DNA of 34,924 bases from an uncultured Oscillospiraceae bacterium. GTDB lineage: Bacteria > Bacillota > Clostridia > Saccharofermentanales > UBA5734. Numbering within the stretch: the first letter of the stretch is position 1; every line of letters starts with the position of its first letter. The translations under genes and the position numbers were made by a program. This document shows, piece after piece, positions 3,610 through 16,936 of the stretch. The notes under the pieces were generated by a model. It was given only the letters and a program-made list of their open reading frames with translations, was not told the DNA's origin and made no database searches. The DNA is taken from the NCBI GenBank assembly GCA_964549475.1, contig CAZJXH010000004.1, positions 1-34,924 of the forward strand, in the 5' to 3' direction.

Positions 3610-4761
3610 TCACTTTTTCTTTTTAGCATCCACAAGATTTCCCTTATACATATCTTTCGGTGAAATATGGATTTTAAGTGTTTTTTCGTATTCTTCGATA
3701 AATTGCAGTTCTCTTTCTGTCACGATCGAAACAGCCGTCCCTTTGTGCCCTGTCCTGCCGGTTCTTCCCACTCGATGAAGATAGTCTCCGGCCTGTTCGG
3801 GAATGTTCAGATTGAAAACATGCGTGACCCCCTGGATATCCAGTCCGCGCGCGGCAATGTCCGATACCACCAGCACCGGGACCTTTCCTGCTCTGAATTC
3901 CTCCATCACCCGTTTCCGGTCTTTCTTGTCAGTATGCCCGTGGAGGCCTTCGACTTTAAGTCCATGGTATCTCAGCCGGTTTGTACAATAATCCGCATCT
4001 TCTCTCGCACCGATAAACACAAGTGCTTTCACCGGTTTGACAATCGCAATCACCTTGCGCAGTACTTCCAGTTTGTCTCTTTCCTCTGTAAGAAAATAGA
4101 GATGCTCGATTGTGTCCGGGATGGTCGCAGTCCCTGTCACTTTGATGATTCCGGGATCTTTCATTATTTCACGGGCCCGGGTTTCGGCCTGCCTGGTGAT
4201 GGTGGCGGAGAACATCAGCAGCTGGCGCTCTTTTAAAGTGCTTTTTATAATGCCGGCGACGCTTTCAAAATTATTTTCGCCGACAAGGGTGTCCGCTTCA
4301 TCCATGATAATGGTCTTGACGGTATGTGCGGCGATTTTCTTTTTTTTAATCAGTTCAAGAACCCGTCCGGGTGTGCCTGCGATGATATGCGGCTTTTCTT
4401 TGAGTTTTTCGATCTGGCGCTCGATGTTAACGTTTCCGATAATCGGAGTGGAGGTGATTCCAATCCCGGAATTCTGTGCCAGCAAATCGATCTGTTTGAT
4501 AATCTGCATGACAAGTTCGTGGGTCGGAGCAAGAATAATCGCCTGCATTTCTTTTTTGGAAGAATCGATTTTTACAAACAAAGGAAGAAGAAATGCCAGG
4601 GTTTTCCCCGTTCCGGTTTCGGATTGAACCACAAGGTCCTTGTTTTCAAGCGCCTCCGGGATGATTTTCTTTTGAACTTCGGTCAACTCGGTTATTCCCT
4701 GTTTTTGTAATGCCGCCCCGAGCAATGGATTCATTCCAAGGGTTTTTAAAAATTCAAGCAT
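3610..4761 (-). CDS. DEAD-box ATP-dependent RNA helicase. It is a minimal two-RecA-domain form with no C-terminal extension.
   Basis: Helicase motifs are visible: Q-motif region (TEVQKKIIP), motif I SETGTGKT, DEAD (IIMDEAD), SAT, and HRVGRTGRTG motif VI. An AAAGGAGG RBS precedes the ATG at 4761. Confidence 0.9.
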   Translation of the reverse strand: MLEFLKTLGMNPLLGAALQKQGITELTEVQKKIIPEALENKDLVVQSETGTGKTLAFLLPLFVKIDSSKKEMQAIILAPTHELVMQIIKQIDLLAQNSGIGITSTPIIGNVNIERQIEKLKEKPHIIAGTPGRVLELIKKKKIAAHTVKTIIMDEADTLVGENNFESVAGIIKSTLKERQLLMFSATITRQAETRAREIMKDPGIIKVTGTATIPDTIEHLYFLTEERDKLEVLRKVIAIVKPVKALVFIGAREDADYCTNRLRYHGLKVEGLHGHTDKKDRKRVMEEFRAGKVPVLVVSDIAARGLDIQGVTHVFNLNIPEQAGDYLHRVGRTGRTGHKGTAVSIVTERELQFIEEYEKTLKIHISPKDMYKGNLVDAKKKK

Positions 4762-4865
4762 CGCAAACCTCCTTTTGATCCTGTAATCAATGACATTTTT
4801 TATTCATTTGGTTATTTATTATGGTTGTCCCTATTGATTGTTTATTATTTTTTACTCATATTTAT

Positions 4866-4920
4866 TGTCTGCCATTTTAGTTGCTCGTTTTAGTTGCTCG
4901 TTTTGACTGTCTGCCATTTT
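4866..4920. repeat. Four tandem 13-bp direct repeats in an A-B-B-A arrangement, lying between the ABC-F stop and the DEAD-box helicase promoter region.
   Basis: tgtctgccatttt (4866-4878), agttgctcgtttt (4879-4891), agttgctcgtttt (4892-4904), gac, tgtctgccatttt (4908-4920). Both unit types share a ...g.tc..tttt skeleton. Confidence 0.7.
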
Positions 4921-4929
4921 GATTGTTTT

Positions 4930-6858
4930 TTACTGCTCTTTGATTTCTTTCCTGTTTGTCGCAATCAATTCGGCAAGCTCATTCAAATAGACCCACCGTT
5001 CTGTTGCCTCATTCAGCTGGACTTCAAGCGTTTCTTTCCTTGCAAAGAGTTTTTGCAGTTTCTCGAAATCGCTCGAGGCCTCGTTTATTTCTTTTTCCAC
5101 ATTCACAAGGCTGTTTTCCAAGTTTGAAATGGTCTCGTCGATGGAATCATATTCTTTTTGCTCTTTGAAAGTGAACTTCAACGGCCTGTTTTTTTTATTC
5201 TCAGCGTTGTAATCCGATTTTTCTGATTTTGATTTGCTGTTGTTGTCTTTTACTATGGCATTCTCTTCTGCCATTTTCTTGTTATAATCGGAATAGCAGC
5301 CTTGAAACCGCCGGATCGACGCATTTCCTTCAAAAATAAAAAGCTTTTCGACCACTCGGTCCAGAAAATACCGGTCGTGAGAGACGGCGATGACTACACC
5401 CTGGAAATCGCTGAGATATCCTTCGAGAATGGTCAGAGTCTGAATGTCCAGATCGTTGGTCGGTTCATCCAGGAGGATAACGTTCGGCGCACTCATCAGA
5501 ATCCGAAGAAGGTAAAGCCGTCTTTTCTCGCCGCCGGAAAGCTTTGAAATAAGCGACCACTGCACCGCGGGAGGAAACAGAAAATTCTCCAGCATCTGGG
5601 CGGCGCTGATCTGTCCATCCCTGGTGGTCAGGTATTCCGCTTCATTTCGGATGTATTCAATCACGCGCAGGCTTTCGTCGATCTCGTCATTTTCTTGTGT
5701 GAAAAATCCAATCTTGACTGTTTCTCCGGTATTGACACAGCCGCGATTCGGCTCCAGACGTCCGGCAATGATTTTAAGCAGAGTCGATTTGCCGCTGCCG
5801 TTCGGTCCGATGATTCCGATGCGGTCATCGCGAAGGACGTTGTAGCTGAAATCGTCAATGATTTTGCGGTTGGAATAATCTTTCCCGATGTGCTCGAGTT
5901 CGATGGTTTTCTTGCCGAGCCGGGTGGTTCCGACACTGATTTCGATGTTTTCGTATGAACCCGCGGATTTTGTATCCCGCAAAGTCTCAAACCGTTCGAT
6001 ACGGGCTTTCTGTTTCGTCGCGCGCGCCTGCGGGCCGCGCTGCATCCATTCAAGTTCTTTGCGGAAAAGGCTCTGTCGCTTCCGATCCGAGGCGATATCG
6101 CTTTCTTCTCTTTCGGCTTTTAATTCAAGATATTTCTCATAATTTGTCAGATAGCTGTATACTTTCCCATTGTCGATTTCGAGAATCCGATTGCAGACAC
6201 GACGCAGAAAATACCGGTCATGTGTGACCATGAGCAAAGCGCCTTTCCGGTTGTTCAAATATTTTTCGAGCCAGTCCACCGTATCATTGTCCAGCTGGTT
6301 GGTGGGCTCATCCAGAATCAGCAGGTTCGCCGGACTGATCAGCGCGCTGGCCAGTGCGATTCGTTTTCTCTGTCCGCCGGAAAGAGTTCCGACAATTGCA
6401 TCAAAGTCAAGCACGCCGAGTTTTGAAAGAATGGTTTTTGCTTCGCTTTCGATTGTCCAGGCTTTCATCGCATCCATTTTCTGGGTGACCTGGAGAAGAT
6501 TTCTCTCCCATGCCGGATCACCGGGATGCCCGTTGAATTCCTGGAGAGTGTGTTCATATTCCCGAAGCAGGTTCATGATGGGCGACGTGCCTTTGAAAAT
6601 CTGTTGAAGAACGGTTATTCCCGGGTCAAAAGTCGGATTTTGCGATAGGTATTCCATCGAGACCTTGTTTCCGGTTGTAATTTTGCCGCTGTCTGGATTT
6701 TCCTCCCCGGCAAGCAGTTTCAGAAGCGTTGATTTCCCTGTCCCGTTGATGCCGATAACGCCGATTTTCTCCCCTTCGTCAATGCCGATAGAAGCCTCGC
6801 TGAACAAGACTTTTTCGCTATATGCTTTTGATAGTTTTTCGGCGGATAGGATATTCAC
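4930..6858 (-). CDS. ABC-F family ATPase. It has two ABC cassettes and no TM domain, plus a C-terminal coiled-coil extension (Uup-like).
   Basis: Walker A motifs GINGTGKST and GPNGSGKST are present. There are two signature motifs, LSGGQRKRIALA and LSGGEKRRLYLL, and a Walker B LLILDEPTN in both halves. The ~90-aa C-terminus is Lys/Glu-rich and coiled-coil (…EKLQKLFARKETLEVQLNEATERW…). Confidence 0.85.
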   Translation of the reverse strand: MNILSAEKLSKAYSEKVLFSEASIGIDEGEKIGVIGINGTGKSTLLKLLAGEENPDSGKITTGNKVSMEYLSQNPTFDPGITVLQQIFKGTSPIMNLLREYEHTLQEFNGHPGDPAWERNLLQVTQKMDAMKAWTIESEAKTILSKLGVLDFDAIVGTLSGGQRKRIALASALISPANLLILDEPTNQLDNDTVDWLEKYLNNRKGALLMVTHDRYFLRRVCNRILEIDNGKVYSYLTNYEKYLELKAEREESDIASDRKRQSLFRKELEWMQRGPQARATKQKARIERFETLRDTKSAGSYENIEISVGTTRLGKKTIELEHIGKDYSNRKIIDDFSYNVLRDDRIGIIGPNGSGKSTLLKIIAGRLEPNRGCVNTGETVKIGFFTQENDEIDESLRVIEYIRNEAEYLTTRDGQISAAQMLENFLFPPAVQWSLISKLSGGEKRRLYLLRILMSAPNVILLDEPTNDLDIQTLTILEGYLSDFQGVVIAVSHDRYFLDRVVEKLFIFEGNASIRRFQGCYSDYNKKMAEENAIVKDNNSKSKSEKSDYNAENKKNRPLKFTFKEQKEYDSIDETISNLENSLVNVEKEINEASSDFEKLQKLFARKETLEVQLNEATERWVYLNELAELIATNRKEIKEQ

Positions 6859-6887
6859 TTGGGTTTCTCCTCGGATATTTGTCCGAT

Positions 6888-8504
6888 CTAGCTGTATAAA
6901 ACAGCTTTGATTTTTGCGATCTCTTCGCTTTCGAGGTATTCATCGTAGGTCATGAGTTTGTCGATGACCCCTTTCGGTGTGATTTCAATGATCCGGTTGG
7001 CAATCGTCTGAACAAACTGATGGTCATGTGAAACAAACAGAACCGTCCCTTTGTAGTTGATCAAACCATTGTTCAGCGCAGTGATGGATTCGAGGTCGAG
7101 ATGGTTCGTCGGTTCGTCCAGCAGCAGTGTATTCGCGCCGGACAGCATCATCTTGGCGAGCATGCATCGGACCCGTTCGCCTCCTGAAAGAACGGACGCT
7201 TTTTTTTGCGCTTCCTCCCCGGAAAAAAGCATTCTCCCGAGCCACCCGCGGATGAATGTCTCGTTCTGGTCTTTGGAATATTGCCGCAGCCAGTCAATGA
7301 TCGACAATTCACTGCCATCGAAATAGTCCGCATTATCCTTTGGGAAATAGGCCTGGGATGTGGTGATTCCCCACTTGAACTCGCCGCTGTCCGCAGTCAT
7401 CTCCCCGATCAAAATCTTGAAAAGCGCTGTTTTTTCGAATCCGTTCGGACCGACAAGAGCAATCTTGTCCCCCTTGTTCACCGTGAAGCTGATTTTTTCC
7501 AAAAGAGGCACTCCGTCGAATGATTTACTGATTTCGTGGACTCTTAGCAGATCGTTCCCGACCTCCCTATCCTGTTTGAAGTCGACAAACGGGTATTTGC
7601 GGGAGGAGGGCCGGATATCTTCCAGCGTCAGTTTTTCCAATTGTTTTTTACGGGATGTCGCCTGTTTTGATTTGGAGGCGTTCGCACTGAACCGCTGGAT
7701 GAATTCTTCCAGATCCTTCCGCTTCGCTTCGATTTTCTTATTCGAATCCTTTGTCTGCTGAAGGATCAGCTGGCTGGATTCATACCAGAAATCATAATTC
7801 CCGGCATATACCTGGATTTTGCCAAAATCGATATCTGCAATGTGAGTACATACTTTATTCAAAAAATGCCGGTCATGGGAGACAACAATGACGGTGTTTT
7901 CAAAATTGTAAAGAAAATTCTCCAGCCAGGTGATGGAAGCGACATCCAGATGATTGGTCGGTTCATCCAGAAGCAGGATCTGAGGATCTCCAAAAAGCGC
8001 CTGGGCGAGCAATACCCGGACTTTCTCGCTGCTGCCGACTTCCGCCATCTTTTTATAGTGATATTCTTCCCCTATGCCAAGTCCGTTCAGCAAAGTGGCG
8101 GCTTCTGTCTCGGCATTCCATCCATTCATTTCAGAAAATTCGGATTCCAGCACGGCAAGCTTGATGCCGTCCTGCTCGGAGAAATCCGGTTTGGAATATA
8201 GTTTCTCTTTTTCTTCGATAATTTCACAAAGCCTTTTATGCCCCATTAAAACTGTTTTCAGAACTTCATATTCATCAAATTCATAATGATTCTGTTTCAG
8301 CATCGCAAGCCGGCTGTTGGCCTCGATGAAAATTTCTCCTTTGTTGGCTTCCAGTTCGCCGGAAAGAATTTTTAGAAACGTAGATTTACCGGAACCGTTT
8401 GCTCCAATCAAACCATAACAATTGCCGGGTGTGAACTTGATGTTCACATTGTCGAATAACGCACGTCCTCCATACCGTAAGGAAATGCCACTGGCTGTAA
8501 TCAT
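6888..8504 (-). CDS. Second ABC-F family ATPase, of the YheS/YbiT size class.
   Basis: Motifs GANGSGKST and GPNGFEKTALFK, signatures LSGGERVRCMLAKM and a second one in the N-terminal half, and LLLDEPTNHLD x2. No membrane domain. The start ATG is at 8502-8504. Confidence 0.85.
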   Translation of the reverse strand: MITASGISLRYGGRALFDNVNIKFTPGNCYGLIGANGSGKSTFLKILSGELEANKGEIFIEANSRLAMLKQNHYEFDEYEVLKTVLMGHKRLCEIIEEKEKLYSKPDFSEQDGIKLAVLESEFSEMNGWNAETEAATLLNGLGIGEEYHYKKMAEVGSSEKVRVLLAQALFGDPQILLLDEPTNHLDVASITWLENFLYNFENTVIVVSHDRHFLNKVCTHIADIDFGKIQVYAGNYDFWYESSQLILQQTKDSNKKIEAKRKDLEEFIQRFSANASKSKQATSRKKQLEKLTLEDIRPSSRKYPFVDFKQDREVGNDLLRVHEISKSFDGVPLLEKISFTVNKGDKIALVGPNGFEKTALFKILIGEMTADSGEFKWGITTSQAYFPKDNADYFDGSELSIIDWLRQYSKDQNETFIRGWLGRMLFSGEEAQKKASVLSGGERVRCMLAKMMLSGANTLLLDEPTNHLDLESITALNNGLINYKGTVLFVSHDHQFVQTIANRIIEITPKGVIDKLMTYDEYLESEEIAKIKAVLYS

Positions 8505-8602
8505 TTTTATACCATCCTTCTATTTAACTCGGCACATTATAGCATGGAACAGGGAAAATACCAAATGAATCAAAGGGACGGCAGGTTGTGTAATCACTCA
8601 GG

Positions 8603-8713
8603 ATGCAACATGGGGACGGTTCTTGTGTTGCATTTTAGCTTATTTCGTTTATGCAACACAAGAACCGTCCCCATATTGCACTAATCCATTTCTTTTCGTA
8701 ATCGATTGCCCTG
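8603..8713. mobile_element. Truncated copy of a MITE-like palindromic repeat, with the central hairpin and right-hand terminal inverted repeat present and the left TIR absent. It overlaps the 3' end of the TSCPD gene.
   Basis: Hairpin arms atgcaacatggggacggttcttgtgttgcat (8603-8633) and atgcaacacaagaaccgtccccatattgca (8651-8680) are reverse complements with one mismatch, separated by a 17-nt loop. They are followed by ccatttcttttcgtaatcgattgccctg (TIR-like, 8689-8713). The same hairpin and TIR are found at 14848-14945. Confidence 0.7.
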
Positions 8714-8980
8714 GAGGGACAGTTCTCTTTTTTCTTCCTCATAAGCTTTTCTGACTGCGACGGCAAGCTGGTCGGAACAGGAGGTATCTCTTTCGTCACA
8801 TTGAATCCCTTTGAATTTCTCCTCGATCTCCTCCACCGTCATTCCTTCAATGATCCGGCTTATCGCCTTCAGATTTCCGTCACAGCCTCCCCGGAAAGAA
8901 ACCTTTCGAATAATATTCCCATCCAATTCAAAGAAAATCATCGATGGGCACACTCCCTCGGTTTCATATTCATGTTTCAT
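8681..8980 (-). CDS. Small four-cysteine protein of the TIGR03905/TSCPD-domain type. Its last ~17 codons and stop codon are encoded by the repeat element.
   Basis: The 99-aa ORF (…FELDGNIIRKVSFRGGCDGNLKAISRIIEGMTVEEIEEKFKGIQCDERDTSCSDQ…) matches the pattern I recall for the TIGR03905 family. The C-terminal …LSLQGNRLRKEMD* is read from the reverse complement of 8681-8722, inside the repeat TIR. Confidence 0.6.
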   Translation of the reverse strand: MKHEYETEGVCPSMIFFELDGNIIRKVSFRGGCDGNLKAISRIIEGMTVEEIEEKFKGIQCDERDTSCSDQLAVAVRKAYEEEKRELSLQGNRLRKEMD

Positions 8981-12989: not shown

Positions 12990-13280
12990 ATGACACACAA
13001 AGAATATGTTTTGATTTTCAAGGCGCTGGCGGATGAGACCCGTCTAAAGATCGTGGAGACGCTGTCCGGCGGAGAGTGCTGCGCCTGTAAAATACTGGAG
13101 CAGTTTTCCATCACCCAGCCAACCTTGTCCTATCACATGAAAATCCTGTGCGACAGCGGTCTTGTCGACGGCAGACGCGACGGAGCCTGGATCCGATATA
13201 CCATCAGCGCGCCAAAGCTCGAAGCCGTCCGTAAATTTCTGGATCGGATCGATCTTTCAGAGAAGAAAGAGGAAATTTAA
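12990..13280 (+). CDS. arsR: ArsR/SmtB-family metalloregulator with a Cys-rich alpha3 site (GECCAC).
   Basis: A 96-aa winged-HTH protein (…ADETRLKIVETLSGGECCACKILEQFSITQPTLSYHMKIL…). Three clustered Cys sit where As(III)/organoarsenical-sensing ArsRs carry their thiolate site. Its stop overlaps the arsP ATG (TAATG at 13278-13282). Confidence 0.85.
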   Translation: MTHKEYVLIFKALADETRLKIVETLSGGECCACKILEQFSITQPTLSYHMKILCDSGLVDGRRDGAWIRYTISAPKLEAVRKFLDRIDLSEKKEEI

Positions 13281-14284
13281 TGTTTATTTTTGAATGGCTG
13301 AATAATCAATTACTAAAAATGGATTGGCTGAATGCGCTGATCCGGCTTTTGGTTGAAAATGTGTTTGGTCTGAATGTCAATGAACAGCTGGGCGGAAGCG
13401 TCCATTTTTTCCTATATGATACGGTCAAAATTTTTATTCTTTTATCTTTTTTAATTTTTATCATTTCCTATATCCAGAGTTTCTTCCCGCCTGAACGCAC
13501 GAGGAAGATCCTTGGCCGGTTCAGCGGCCTTGCCGCTAATATCCTCGGCGCGCTTCTTGGAACCATCACGCCTTTTTGTTCCTGCTCCTCGATTCCTATT
13601 TTTATTGGATTTACCAATGCAGGACTGCCCCTGGGCGTCACCTTTTCTTTCCTGATCTCCTCCCCGCTTGTGGATCTGGCTTCGGTTCTTCTCCTTGCCA
13701 GTATTTTCAACTGGAAAATTGCCATCGCGTATGTGGTTGTCGGGCTCATTCTGGCCGTTATTGGCGGAACGGTCATCGGGAAGGCGAAACTGGAGGATTA
13801 TGTGGAGCCTTTTATTTTCAAAAACAAGGTCCTTGATGTGGTACAGGCGAAACTGTCAAGGCGTGATCGGATCAACTATTCCAAAGAACAGGTTTTTTCT
13901 GTCATCCGCAAAGTCTGGCTTTATGTGCTGATCGGCGTTGGAATCGGCGCATTGATCCATAACTGGATACCGGAAAATGTCATTGCAGCCGTTCTCGGAC
14001 AGGACAAATGGTATTCTGTGATCATTGCAACCATTGTCGGCGTACCGATGTATGCGGATATCTTTGGAACCCTTCCTATTGCACAATCATTGGTTGAGAA
14101 AGGAGTCGGGATCGGAACGGCGCTTTCTTTCATGATGGCAGTGACGGCGCTTTCTCTTCCATCCATCATTATGCTCAAGAAAGTTGTGAAAACGAAACTA
14201 TTAGGGATTTTTGTCGGGATTGTAACAGTCGGCATCATCATCATCGGATATGTTTTCAATGCATTCGGGTGGTTATTGTTATAA
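13280..14284 (+). CDS. arsP: ArsP-family permease (PF03773, organoarsenical/methylarsenite efflux permease type).
   Basis: A 334-aa polytopic membrane protein with the diagnostic TPFCSCSSIP motif (GTITPFCSCSSIPIFIGF) in which the two Cys of ArsP are essential. It is arranged as a two-halves permease. Confidence 0.8.
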   Translation: MFIFEWLNNQLLKMDWLNALIRLLVENVFGLNVNEQLGGSVHFFLYDTVKIFILLSFLIFIISYIQSFFPPERTRKILGRFSGLAANILGALLGTITPFCSCSSIPIFIGFTNAGLPLGVTFSFLISSPLVDLASVLLLASIFNWKIAIAYVVVGLILAVIGGTVIGKAKLEDYVEPFIFKNKVLDVVQAKLSRRDRINYSKEQVFSVIRKVWLYVLIGVGIGALIHNWIPENVIAAVLGQDKWYSVIIATIVGVPMYADIFGTLPIAQSLVEKGVGIGTALSFMMAVTALSLPSIIMLKKVVKTKLLGIFVGIVTVGIIIIGYVFNAFGWLLL

Positions 14285-14354
14285 TAATTTCACCGGATCC
14301 AATTATTTATATGAAAAAGCAGAAAACAACGATAGAAATCAGGAGGATCTTATC

Positions 14355-14597
14355 ATGGTCATTAAAATTTTAGGCTCAGGGTGCAAAAACTGCATCACAC
14401 TCACCGAAAACACCAAAGCGGCTCTTTCCATACTCGGCGTCCATGCAGAAATCGCCAAAGTGACCGACTTTGCAGACATCGCTGCATTCGGTGTCATGTC
14501 CACTCCCGCGCTAGTCATTGATGAAAAAGTCGTTTCCTTCGGAAAAGTGCTCAAACCAAAAGAAATTGTAAAAATTCTTGAAACGATGTCCGTATAA
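14355..14597 (+). CDS. Small thioredoxin-fold protein (TIGR00412 'redox-active disulfide protein 2' type), CxxC.
   Basis: MVIKILGSGCKNCITLTENTKAAL…VMSTPALVIDEKVVSFGKV (80 aa). An AGGAGG RBS lies 8 nt before the ATG at 14355. The longer ORF-track start at 14250 lacks an RBS. Confidence 0.75.
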   Translation: MVIKILGSGCKNCITLTENTKAALSILGVHAEIAKVTDFADIAAFGVMSTPALVIDEKVVSFGKVLKPKEIVKILETMSV

Positions 14598-14733
14598 AGA
14601 TTAATCCCTCATTATTTGTACGGAACTCCAAGCCAGGGCTGGTAAACAACAAATTATTAAAGCGCCATAAGCAAGAAAATTGAAACAGAAAACAATCAAA
14701 CAGATTTTTAATTTTTACAAGGCTAAAGATCGA

Positions 14734-14762
14734 TTGAAGGATGAATTTTCCTGTGATATTAT
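14734..14762 (+). promoter_or_regulatory. Candidate sigma-A promoter for the CoADR-rhodanese operon, upstream of the MITE insertion.
   Basis: TTGAAG (14734-14739), a 17-bp spacer, and TATTAT (14757-14762). It is followed by an imperfect palindrome TATGAG-n14-CTCATA (14764-14790). Confidence 0.4.
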
Positions 14763-14803
14763 ATATGAGTGCAAATGCATACGCTCATAAACAGGATTGG
14801 AGG

Positions 14804-14945
14804 CAGGGCAATCGCTTCCGAAAAGAAACGGATTAGTAGCAGATGGAATGCAACATGGGGACGGTTCTTGTGTTGCATAAACGAAATAAAATGAAATATA
14901 AGAACCGTCCCCATGCTCCATTTCTTTTCGGAAGCAATTGCCCTG
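14804..14945. mobile_element. Complete MITE-like non-autonomous element of about 142 bp. It has 25-bp terminal inverted repeats, a nested internal hairpin and 9-bp target-site duplications. It is inserted in the 5' UTR of the CoADR-rhodanese gene.
   Basis: Left TIR cagggcaatcgcttccgaaaagaaa (14804-14828) and right TIR tttcttttcggaagcaattgccctg (14921-14945) are reverse complements, 24/25. Perfect direct repeats GATTGGAGG flank them at 14795-14803 and 14946-14954. The inner hairpin is tggggacggttctt / aagaaccgtcccca. There is no ORF inside. The right TSD supplies the GGAGG RBS for the ATG at 14962. Confidence 0.75.
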
Positions 14946-14961
14946 GATTGGAGGACGAAAT

Positions 14962-16632
14962 ATGCGAATCATTGTAATTGGCGCAGTCGCTGCTGGCACC
15001 TCTGCCGCGGCAAAAGCACGAAGAAATACAGAAAACGCAGATATCATCATTTATGAGAAAGACCGCTTTATTTCTTATTCTGGTTGCGGCATGCCCTATT
15101 ATATTGGTGGAGTAGTGGAGCGTTCCGATGATCTGACACCACGGGACCCTGCATTCTTCAAGAGTAAATACAACGTGGATGTCTTTATTTTACATGAGGT
15201 ACTTTCGATTCATCCGGATAAGAAAATCTTGGAAATAAAAAATCTCTCCACTGGCCAAGTATTCACGGATACCTATGACACCCTTATTCTTGCCACCGGT
15301 GCAAAAGCTGTTGTTCCACCAATTAAAGGGGTTAACGGTTCGAACGTTTTTATGCTGCGCAATATCAACGATATGAACCGGATTCATTCTTTCATTGAAT
15401 CGAAGAAACCACAATCTGCGGTGATCATCGGCACAGGTTTCATCGGCCTCGAGGTTTGTGAAAACTTGAAAAGACTCGGGATTGATATAACTATGATTGA
15501 AAAGTTGCCGCAAGTCACACCGGGACTTGATGATGATATGGCCGGTTATGTGGAAGAACATCTTGAAAAAAATGGGATTTCTGTTCTGACTTCTGTTTCT
15601 GCAGAAAAAATCACCGCGAACGGAGTGATATTATCGGACGGTTCCTCGGTCGATGCGGAAATGATCATTGTATCCGTAGGAATTCGACCCGAAACGGAGC
15701 TTGCTAAGCAAACAGGAATTGAACTTGGCATATCCGGTGCCATCAAGGTTGACAAGAAGATGCGAACAAACCGGAAAGATATTTTTGCCTGCGGAGATTG
15801 CATCGAACAATTTCATGTTGTCACAGGGAAACCTGTTTATCGTCCATTGGGGTCTACTGCGAACAAAACGGGTCGAATCGCAGGAGATTGTGCAACGAAC
15901 GGCAGTCTTGAATTTCGAGGAATACTTGGTACTGGAATTTTTAAAGTTTTCGATTTGGCAGTTGCTCAAACCGGACTGTCCGAACGCGAAGCGCTGGAAC
16001 AAGGATATGACGTTGCTGTCTGCCATAATATCAAACCGGACAAGCCGGAATATATGGGAGGAAGAGAAATGGTCATCAAAGGCATTGCCGACAAAGCGAC
16101 CGGGAGACTTCTGGGAGCCCAGATCGTCGGGTTTGAGGGAGTCGATAAACGGATTGATGTTTTCGTAACAGCTATTACCTTTAAGGCAAACGTCGAAGAC
16201 CTGTTCCATCTTGATCTGGCTTATGCACCGCCTTTTTCCACTACGAAAGATCCGGTCATGTATACCGGCATGATCCTGGACAATGCCATCCACCGATCCA
16301 GGCCATTGATAACGGCGCAAGCGCTGGACGCCCTGATACAATCCGGTGAAAAGGTTGAATTGATTGATGCAAGAGTCTCTTCCCAGTATGGGAAAGGACA
16401 TATCGGCGCAGCGGATTCGATTCCCCATACAGCCCTGAGAGAAGCCGCAGCGAACCTGGATCCGAATGTCTTTACCGTGACATACTGCAACAAAGGAGTC
16501 ACCGGGAACGCTGCGCAGAATATTCTGATCAATCGGGGCTTTAAAAAAGTATACAACCTTTCGGGTGGACACGAACAATTTAAAAAATTCATGATTAAAA
16601 ACAGCAAGAAACCAGGTGGAAATAATAGTTGA
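14962..16632 (+). CDS. CoA-disulfide reductase / NADH-dependent persulfide reductase fused to a C-terminal rhodanese domain (CoADR-RHD).
   Basis: The N-terminus MRIIVIGAVAAGTSAA (FAD GxGxxG) and redox Cys in SYSGCGMPYYIGG are as in CoADR/Nox. A second NAD(P) fold (AVIIGTGFIGLE) is present. C-terminal ~100 aa form a rhodanese domain with the active-site loop TYCNKGVTGN. The ORF-track start (TTG 14938) lies inside the repeat. The ATG at 14962 has a GGAGG RBS. Confidence 0.85.
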   Translation: MRIIVIGAVAAGTSAAAKARRNTENADIIIYEKDRFISYSGCGMPYYIGGVVERSDDLTPRDPAFFKSKYNVDVFILHEVLSIHPDKKILEIKNLSTGQVFTDTYDTLILATGAKAVVPPIKGVNGSNVFMLRNINDMNRIHSFIESKKPQSAVIIGTGFIGLEVCENLKRLGIDITMIEKLPQVTPGLDDDMAGYVEEHLEKNGISVLTSVSAEKITANGVILSDGSSVDAEMIIVSVGIRPETELAKQTGIELGISGAIKVDKKMRTNRKDIFACGDCIEQFHVVTGKPVYRPLGSTANKTGRIAGDCATNGSLEFRGILGTGIFKVFDLAVAQTGLSEREALEQGYDVAVCHNIKPDKPEYMGGREMVIKGIADKATGRLLGAQIVGFEGVDKRIDVFVTAITFKANVEDLFHLDLAYAPPFSTTKDPVMYTGMILDNAIHRSRPLITAQALDALIQSGEKVELIDARVSSQYGKGHIGAADSIPHTALREAAANLDPNVFTVTYCNKGVTGNAAQNILINRGFKKVYNLSGGHEQFKKFMIKNSKKPGGNNS

Positions 16633-16936
16633 TATCTTTAAATCTCTGGCAGAAGAAAGCCGGCTTCCCATTCTGTCTCTTCTGGTACAAGAAGAAATGT
16701 GCGTATGTGAAATCGAAGATTGCTTAAAAATGACACAGTCCAATGTTTTCCGCCATTTGGCAGCATTAAAGCAAAGTAGAATCCTTGACAGCTGCAAGAA
16801 AGCACAATGGGTTTATTACAAAATCGGCGAGACCTTTATTAAAGAGAATTCCCTTCTGTGGGAGTACTTGGTGGATCATTTTCAAAAAGATCCGATCTAT
16901 CGGACCGAAATCAGAGCCCGTCGAACATGCGAGTAA
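16616..16936 (+). CDS. ArsR/SmtB-family regulator with a CVC metal(loid)/thiol-sensing motif. It is translationally coupled to the CoADR-RHD gene, overlapping by 17 nt.
   Basis: GTG start at 16616. The protein reads …AEESRLPILSLLVQEEMCVCEIEDCLKMTQSNVFRHLAALKQSRIL…, comparable to the ELCVCDLC site of As(III)/Cd-type ArsR. Confidence 0.75.
   Translation: MEIIVDIFKSLAEESRLPILSLLVQEEMCVCEIEDCLKMTQSNVFRHLAALKQSRILDSCKKAQWVYYKIGETFIKENSLLWEYLVDHFQKDPIYRTEIRARRTCE

Follow-up and report, generated by a model that had tools for sequence, protein, structure and literature searches.

A 142-bp palindromic element in the leader of a CoADR-rhodanese gene holds a hairpin doublet related to repeats that flank RAYT genes

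The 34,924-nucleotide stretch of DNA analyzed here, hereafter the window, comes from an uncultured Oscillospiraceae bacterium (the whole of NCBI contig CAZJXH010000004.1). At positions 14804-14945, it carries a 142-bp palindrome, copy A, between a promoter-like site and the Shine-Dalgarno (SD) sequence and ATG of a gene encoding a CoA-disulfide-reductase-like flavoprotein with a C-terminal rhodanese domain (CoADR-rhodanese). [quoted passage not shown] With about even confidence, we favor a composite, nonautonomous mobile repeat in which a REPIN-like doublet is nested in a MITE-like shell. The first module would be the core at 14847-14922, made of two inverted hairpin units of ~30 nt, each with a 7-bp stem TGNAACA/TGTTNCA and the loop GGGGACGGTTCTT, with 12 nt of spacer between them. 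For a large clade of Y1/HUH enzymes of the RAYT type (REP-associated tyrosine transposases, REP standing for repetitive extragenic palindrome), this unit would be the cognate flanking repeat, and the core would presumably be copied as single-stranded DNA (ssDNA) by a Y1 enzyme encoded elsewhere in the genome. The second module would be a shell of outer arms of 25-29 nt, CAGGGCAATCGCTTCCGAAAAGAAA, which would behave as a classical MITE and whose insertion into GATTGGAGG, the ribosome-binding site (RBS) of the CoADR-rhodanese gene, would have made a 9-bp target-site duplication (TSD). We infer that two transposition systems took part, in this nesting order and through enzymes of these kinds. The main puzzle is that an element associated with an HUH transposase is flanked by a 9-bp duplication at all.

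Structure of the element and of its second copy

A repeat search resolved the palindrome into outer inverted arms (14804-14832 and 14917-14945; 29 nt, 93% complementary, 24/25 over a 25-nt core) and an inner inverted repeat (14847-14878 and 14891-14922; 32 nt, 84%), and it located an exact direct repeat, GGATTGGAGG, at 14794-14803 and 14945-14954. Nine bases of this repeat, GATTGGAGG, abut the ends of both arms as the TSD, the tenth, a G, being the last base of the right arm; the chance of an exact 9-mer at both junctions is ~4e-6. These figures bear out the earlier description of a 142-bp palindrome with inverted ends and a perfect 9-bp TSD, and the statement that it has no coding capacity also holds, since its only open reading frames (ORFs) are spurious stop-free frames. 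At up to three mismatches, the window contains three sites that match the 25-nt arm, compared with 0.00 expected. The RNA of 14780-14975 has a predicted folding energy of -86.6 kcal/mol (z = -10.9 against shuffled controls), the element as ssDNA one of -47.1 kcal/mol (z = -12.4 against shuffled controls), and the inner doublet as ssDNA one of -21 kcal/mol (z = -7.7).

Read on the plus strand, the left TSD copy (14795-14803) is now an orphan SD-like sequence 5' of the hairpin. The element ends begin CAGGGCAATCG, and the left arm, or terminal inverted repeat (TIR), CAGGGCAATCGCTTCCGAAAAGAAACGGA (14804-14832), was found only in the window and in L001, a JGI metagenome contig that represents an independent assembly of a close relative, with a CoADR protein 98% identical. 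The arm is followed by a variable junction defined by alignments, TTAGTAGCAGATGG (14833-14846), and then by hairpin unit 1 (14847-14878), with the stem TGCAACA/TGTTGCA and the conserved loop GGGGACGGTTCTT at 14857-14869, a structure supported by covariation and by the ssDNA fold. The 12-nt spacer AAACGAAATAAA (14879-14890) is kept in aligned bare doublets of two further loci, L021 and L059. Hairpin unit 2 (14891-14922, minus strand) is inverted and has a degenerate stem, with its core at 14900-14912; its foot is overlapped by the right arm (14917-14945, minus strand). The right TSD copy (14946-14954) ends in GGAGG (14950-14954), the working SD.

A second, one-armed copy (copy B), identified by arm match and alignment, lies on the minus strand at 8540-8713, between a TSCPD-domain gene and an ABC-F gene. 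Its arm at 8685-8713 (with the 25-nt match at 8689-8713, minus strand) is identical to the left arm of copy A at 31/34 positions, and its inner doublet is complete and better preserved, with cores at 8612-8624 (+) and 8660-8672 (-). Copy B has the arm-to-core junction of copy A, less 12 nt (copy A 14836-14847). Because this junction is the same in both copies, the doublet would already have lain within the shell when the composite was copied, and the composite would have been copied at least once as a unit.

L001 carries both copies at the same positions: its copy B is identical, and its copy A shows four substitutions and one indel, the 6-bp insertion CATGGG just 3' of the junction, after window position 14848. 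As the element occurs in two independent assemblies, it is no assembly artifact, and the insertion is old enough to be common to both. Orthologs of the CoADR-rhodanese gene at 78-81% protein identity have short leaders or none, and no palindrome, which fits an insertion; they are too diverged to display the exact empty site. One complete and one one-armed copy lie within 35 kb. No copies were found in the 10 kb past the right end along the contig of the relative, and no outer arm in another ~27 kb of the related metagenome.

We weighed whether copy A might instead be a native cis-regulatory element (an attenuator, a protein-binding palindrome, or a riboswitch) in the leader of a sulfur-stress gene. 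Its place in the 5' untranslated region (UTR) downstream of an operator-like palindrome, its retention in the close relative, and the same orientation of both copies relative to the downstream gene would suit such a role. The role becomes very remote, however, in view of the exact flanking duplication, the occurrence of arms and core at the unrelated locus between the TSCPD and ABC-F genes, and the absence of the palindrome from the orthologs at 78-81% identity. Moreover, the hairpin has no U-tract terminator and does not sequester the SD, and the whole window gave no Rfam match at gathering thresholds, with only sub-threshold chance matches at E <= 10.

Copy B also touches its neighboring genes. 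The TSCPD-domain gene (8681-8980, minus strand) takes its final 10 codons, QGNRLRKEMD, and its stop from the outer arm (8681-8713, minus strand); because the Pfam domain of that gene ends at residue 80, copy B has replaced the tail and stop codon that were native to its C terminus. The ABC-F gene (6888-8504, minus strand) has a strong promoter-like site at the distal edge of copy B, which reads TTGGTA-17-TATAAT, is TG-extended, and scores 10/12 (8536-8564, minus strand). It overlaps the stretch CAGGGAAAAT, a possible degenerate element end, and copy B may contribute its -35 region.

Two further resemblances concern the ends. The sequence CTCCAAGCCAGGGC at 14626-14639 is complementary at 13/14 positions to the right end plus TSD of copy A (GCCCTGGATTGGAG, 14940-14953), and the matching site in L001 has one extra mismatch; this complementarity is compatible with chance (rough expectation ~0.04 in 500 nt) or else could mark a solo end left behind. 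In Porphyromonas gingivalis, a 77-bp inverted repeat located upstream of PG0106 has as its terminal 12 nt the same sequence with which the arm starts, CAGGGCAATCGC, and otherwise differs from the arm. This identity may be due to chance, an 11-mer of it being common in literature text, or to a common transposase end motif.

The inner hairpin doublet and its association with RAYT genes

The earlier note had mentioned the inner 14-bp stem as an incidental part of a nested palindrome. We found that this stem is the conserved core of a hairpin doublet that occurs across phyla and flanks RAYT genes. The core unit has the form TGNAACA-N-GGGGACGGTTCTT-N-TGTTNCA, of which the element holds an inverted doublet. 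In a collection of 185,579 species-representative genomes, the motif GGGGACGGTTCTTNTNTTNCAT was found in at least 56 stretches, several genomes having more than one match. Among the matches listed were Bacillota (Bacillus, Virgibacillus, Gracilibacillus, Oceanobacillus, Syntrophomonas, Ruminiclostridium, Dehalobacterium, and metagenome-assembled genomes, or MAGs, of Oscillospiraceae and Lachnospiraceae), many Prevotella MAGs, and one Planctomycetes MAG; viral contigs gave no match to the core pattern. Extracted in register, the unit reads nnTGNAACAnGGGGACGGTTCTTnTGTTNCAT, with the consensus nnTGAAACAnGGGGACGGTTCTTnTGTTnCAT and without a GT[AG]G (GTAG) tetranucleotide at the hairpin foot. Two units usually form an inverted doublet, the spacer between them being a few to a few dozen nucleotides long, commonly 6-17 nt, and one unit alone folds as an ssDNA hairpin.

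The stem covaries. Across 100 distinct units, 79.1% of the stem cells were paired compared with 72.7% in shuffles (none of 500 shuffles reached the observed pairing or covariation), and double-sided stem changes were seen in 48 cells compared with 17.4 expected, slid controls all being lower; these counts include related copies within genomes and to that extent overstate the independent evidence. The stem pair 5-29, for instance, was AU in 35 units, UA in 15, CG in 11, and GC in 7, and rarer compensatory stem variants were TGGTAC/GTACCA, GATGCG/CGCATC, and GAAGCA/TGCTTC.

The shell is distributed quite differently from the core. A degenerate outer-TIR pattern had no exact match in the 185,579 genomes, and the whole element with its flanks (14795-14954) had no BLAST match in plasmids or phages. 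Outer arms were present in the window and L001 and absent from all others of the ~65 fetched loci. In doublets elsewhere, the palindrome reaches only 0-18 nt (mostly 5-11) past the core, and there is no consistent flanking direct repeat. In an Oscillospiraceae MAG (L021), a bare doublet matches the core of the element at 93% identity over 60 nt, spacer included. A search of the translated element against protein databases returned two spurious ORFs of the same subfamily, one of which (P0126) led to L059, another contig of the JGI sample that yielded L001, with a bare doublet and a nested cluster; L059 showed neither a duplication nor, at up to 6 mismatches, an outer arm. Three long repetitive proteins returned by the same search were chance matches.

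These distributions bear on the reading of the element as a plain MITE, that is, one DDE-mobilized unit whose internal palindrome has no separate identity. The TIRs, the 9-bp TSD, the small size, the absence of coding capacity, and the second copy within 35 kb all agree with it, and to this extent the MITE label of the earlier note stands. What does not stand is the lack of identity of the palindrome, which occurs at 56 or more loci across phyla as against none for the ends, has its own structural covariation and its own associated transposase family, and is found alone in the metagenome sample of the close relative. The spread of the core, its covariation, and the RAYT-flanking units described below largely refute the plain MITE, which we regard as quite improbable. 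The proposal of an IS4-, IS256-, or IS1-type mobilizer fares no better: it was drawn from TSD length only, no insertion sequence (IS) with such ends was found in any of the collections searched, and the core is HUH-associated. The same note was right that no mobilizing transposase lies in the window, in which neither a Pfam domain search nor a further search found one. Its impression that the family is undescribed applies to the outer shell, but the core belongs with REP/REPIN or TIRYT-associated repeats (PMC3733652, PMC6006769).

The association with RAYT genes emerged when ORFs near the motif were clustered. No DDE transposase recurred, which ruled out the core as an IS end beside such a gene; one small family recurred at three loci (L008, L016, and L024) and pointed to RAYTs. 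These three proteins match Pfam Y1_Tnp with E-values of 2e-13 to 4e-17, and the L008 protein, the only one tested, matches NCBIfam REP_Tyr_transpos (REP-associated tyrosine transposase) with 84.7 bits at a cut-off of 80. The unit lies on both sides of the RAYT gene in L016, L024, L008, and L065 and on a single side in L063/64 and L066/67; together, these represent six independent genomes. The units are inverted around the gene in L016, L024, and L065: in L016, units at 1176(+) and 2183(-) bracket the gene at 1265-2053, and in L024, units at 3778(+) and 4862(-) bracket the gene at 3844-4614. The nearest units in L008, at 6301(-) and 7153(+), face the opposite way around the gene at 6361-7134. 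Three of the six are isolate genomes, two of them complete, and have the stem variant GAAGCA/TGCTTC with the core GGGACGGTTC; the unit lies on both sides of the RAYT gene in Natranaerofaba, at 1368(+) and 2360(-), upstream of it in Geosporobacter, and downstream of it in a Bacillaceae genome. Since the unit flanks RAYT genes in other genomes, the inner doublet of the element would be a REPIN-like pair of the repeat of that clade.

The RAYT proteins are 257-262 aa long and have a tail of ~130 aa past the Y1_Tnp domain; a few homologues (P0146, P0212, and P0237) have precomputed hits to HTH_23/HTH_24. With the L016 protein as the query, 3559 homologues were obtained at E <= 1e-20, many of them named RayT or REP-associated tyrosine transposase by their sources. 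A large share of the homologues in the hit table lie on contigs of 0.9-2 kb. Homologues on contigs of ~1 kb are what would be expected if assemblies break at the flanking repeats, as the core repeats appear to make them do, and MAGs probably under-represent both the RAYT genes and the repeats beside them.

Y1/HUH transposition, as known for IS608 and ISDra2, leaves no target duplication, and an exact 9-bp duplication marks a staggered cut, the signature of a DDE-type transposase. With this in mind, we considered a single-system alternative, in which the 142-bp element is a deletion derivative of a RAYT/TIRYT "TIRtron", that is, the organism's own tyrosine transposase unit minus its gene, mobilized by Y1, with arms of ~65 nt (CAGGGCAAT... 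through the GGGGACGGTTCTT hairpin) as long TIRs. Several observations speak for it: the hairpin unit flanks RAYT genes elsewhere in the outside-in orientation that it has in the element, the arm-plus-unit junction is common to copies A and B, and the right arm of copy A resembles the left arm with a deletion of 15-17 nt between GGA repeats. Long TIRs with GGGGWSAS beside RAYT-like genes, REP units fused to unrelated sequence, and dispersed dimers have also been described (Di Nocera et al., PMC3733652). We nonetheless think this alternative unlikely, because the element has the exact 9-bp duplication that IS608- and ISDra2-type transposition would not make, because L021 and the same metagenome sample contain bare doublets of this subfamily that lack the outer sequence, and because the RAYT-flanking units in L016, L024, and L065 have no comparable outer extension.

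We therefore return to the nested composite, which we do not file as a simple REPIN because of the exact 9-bp duplication on the 142-bp element. A number of points weigh against it. No RAYT gene was found in the ~62 kb reachable from this lineage, and no IS or transposase with matching ends in any collection searched. Neither the outer-TIR pattern nor the subfamily core-plus-spacer pattern was found in JGI contigs, which are weak negatives, as that collection misses the contig of L001 itself. Only three outer arms and one complete, TSD-bearing element are known; copy B has no recognizable second arm and no flanking duplication, a diverged arm or TSD having been sought there with nothing convincing found. 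Nor was an empty site found, the only close relative, L001, being filled at both loci. The earlier note had set the sequences of orthologs as a check on the insertion, and here the outcome is divided: the one close ortholog carries the element, whereas more distant loci lack it and have short leaders. The covariation counts are inflated by related copies, and the case for two nested systems draws on one TSD together with bare doublets that have none. If the nested composite is right, a DDE-type MITE would have captured, and would now spread, the element of another system. The other way to account for the duplication is that a Y1/TIRYT element inserts with a 9-bp duplication, which, if true, would contradict the accepted HUH mechanism.

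We also dismissed the core as a parS site, a CRISPR repeat, attC, an inverted repeat of a Tn3- or IS6-type element, or a cre or Rex operator, on sequence pattern alone. No description of the GGGGACGGTTCTT-loop hairpin was found in the literature, though one may exist, and matches to the core string were unrelated primers only. In front of a unit there are often from one to three incomplete direct copies of its 5' stem and first Gs, for example GAAACATGGG GAAACATGGGT GAAACATGGGGACGG; such pieces were seen in L008, L016, L022, L028, L039, L054, L059 (17090-17260), and L001 (9879-9896). The CATGGG indel that distinguishes the window from L001 falls within an iterated 5'-stem piece, and the iteration may result from slippage or from recurrent cutting and rejoining at the foot of the hairpin. 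In eight Prevotella MAG loci (L009, L015, L020, L031, L045, L046, L050, and L056), the doublets often lie within long stop-free frames, some of >600 aa. These frames, which are putative genes, recall the in-frame Rickettsia palindromic elements (RPEs).

The leader and locus of the CoADR-rhodanese gene

The ORF at 14962-16632 (+) has the Pfam domains Pyr_redox_2, Pyr_redox_dim, and Rhodanese. The nearest named relatives of this pyridine-nucleotide disulfide oxidoreductase and rhodanese protein are from Clostridia, such as Caproiciproducens, at ~75% identity; a look-up for an exactly identical protein gave no match. A consensus scan placed a promoter-like site (TTGAAG-17-TATTAT, with an upstream TG, i.e. 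TG-extended) at 14734-14762 (+), upstream of the insertion, and found no promoter-like site on the strand of the gene and no terminator-like site between the element and the ATG. The element thus sits between promoter and RBS, as the earlier note had it. From the sequence, we also read an operator-like palindrome, TATGAGTG-N10-CGCTCATA, at 14764-14789 (+), in the interval from the -10 box to the insertion site; this palindrome would be part of the native leader, outside the element, and the ortholog locus L061 has a similar "-10 + ATATGA..." arrangement. The GGAGG at 14950-14954, within the right TSD copy, lies 7 nt upstream of the CoADR-rhodanese ATG at 14962 and serves as its SD, in agreement with the earlier note, and the original UTR proposed there, ...AAACAGGATTGGAGGACGAAATATG, is what excision of the element and one TSD copy restores. 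The promoter, the operator-like palindrome, and the RBS are all intact after the insertion.

The earlier note had raised the possibility of a translational or transcriptional barrier. The predicted unpaired probability of the SD, however, is 0.64 with the element and 0.70 in the reconstructed element-free leader, the hairpin is self-contained in the predicted fold, and no U-tract follows it. Because SD accessibility is nearly unchanged and a U-tract is missing, these models do not predict a translational or transcriptional block, and an effect on mRNA processing or stability seems more likely than one on translation initiation. RNase III cuts long duplex RNA, and 5' stabilizers are known in Gram-positive bacteria. 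By analogy, the near-perfect duplex of ~60 bp could plausibly be an RNase III substrate, and the orphan SD-like GGAGG with a stable stem near the 5' end plausibly resembles the known stabilizers. A sulfide- or persulfide-stress gene has in this way come to carry a very stable leader hairpin of ~140 nt, transposed onto its RBS without destroying it, and the locus offers a natural test case of how insertions are tolerated or exploited, whether through mRNA processing, a 5' stabilizer, or an orphan SD.

The gene lies in a cluster (12990-16936) in the style of sulfur and metal stress, comprising an ArsR-type regulator, an ArsP-like permease, a thioredoxin-like protein, the CoADR-rhodanese gene, and a second ArsR-type regulator that overlaps the CoADR stop; P-type ATPases flank the cluster on both sides. 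On the contig of the relative, dnaN, recF, a remA-like gene, gyrB, parA, and parB (L068:1-7500) lie ~3-10 kb past the right end of the window. Given dnaN, recF, gyrB, parA, and parB at this distance, the CoADR-rhodanese locus would be near the chromosomal replication origin. The same contig has a 1.3-kb stretch without called genes (4435-5730).

Comparison with known systems

The closest parallel to the core is the REPIN/REP system with its RAYT (TnpA_REP, a Y1 HUH enzyme). In both, short hairpin units are paired as an inverted doublet around a conserved spacer, the doublet is dispersed intergenically in many copies, bare doublets have no target duplication, and the unit is inverted around a RAYT-type gene, usually present in a single copy per genome. 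Unlike REPINs, the core described here has no GT[AG]G head, and what is conserved in it is the sequence of a 13-nt loop and not that of the stem foot; its hosts are Bacillota and Bacteroidota rather than Proteobacteria, and the doublet in the window has additional inverted arms around it, together with a 9-bp TSD.

TIRYT/TIRtron repeats have the motif GGGG[AT][CG]A[CG] (GGGGWSAS) in their flanking inverted repeats (PMC3733652, PMC6006769), which the core GGGGACGG fits at 7/8 positions. That system has RAYT-like proteins of ~260 aa with a tail resembling a helix-turn-helix (HTH), as the tail of the proteins considered here may do, and, likewise, repeats that form dimers and clusters, and fusions of REP units with unrelated sequence have been described for it (PMC3733652). 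The subclass 2.1 of TnpA_Y1 proteins has C-terminal HTH domains, and no REP-like structures were found beside their genes (Quentin et al. 2018, PMC6006769). In contrast, the genes considered here have at their flanks a covarying hairpin whose loop is invariant and which is dispersed genome-wide; by description, the proteins of these genes are candidate members of the subclass. We tentatively suggest, as a possibility well short of even, that the GGGGACGGTTCTT-loop hairpin is the long-sought cognate repeat of the HTH-bearing (subclass 2.1/TIRYT) RAYT clade, which occurs in Bacillota, Bacteroidota, and beyond, and that one such REPIN is here fused to a TSD-making shell. Beyond this locus, the core repeat ties a large, poorly characterized RAYT clade of Gram-positive bacteria and Bacteroidota to a specific hairpin, whose recognition as DNA can be tested in vitro.

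In providing the TSCPD gene with its last 10 codons and its stop, copy B is reminiscent of the RPEs and of REPs that invade coding sequences, but it is a C-terminal replacement at a gene end, unlike the in-frame internal insertions of RPEs. The shell, finally, shares short TIRs, a TSD, the absence of coding capacity, a gene-adjacent position, and a strong co-transcribed hairpin with classical MITEs (Correia/NEMIS, RUP, and bcr1) and with BrickBuilt of Porphyromonas gingivalis, a MITE that has likewise trapped an unrelated repeat (PMC4596501). The present element differs from these in that no parent IS with matching ends was found and one complete copy is known, and in its trapped cargo, a putative mobile element of an HUH transposition system. 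The nesting of an HUH-associated element in a TSD-making shell is what would make it unusual among them.

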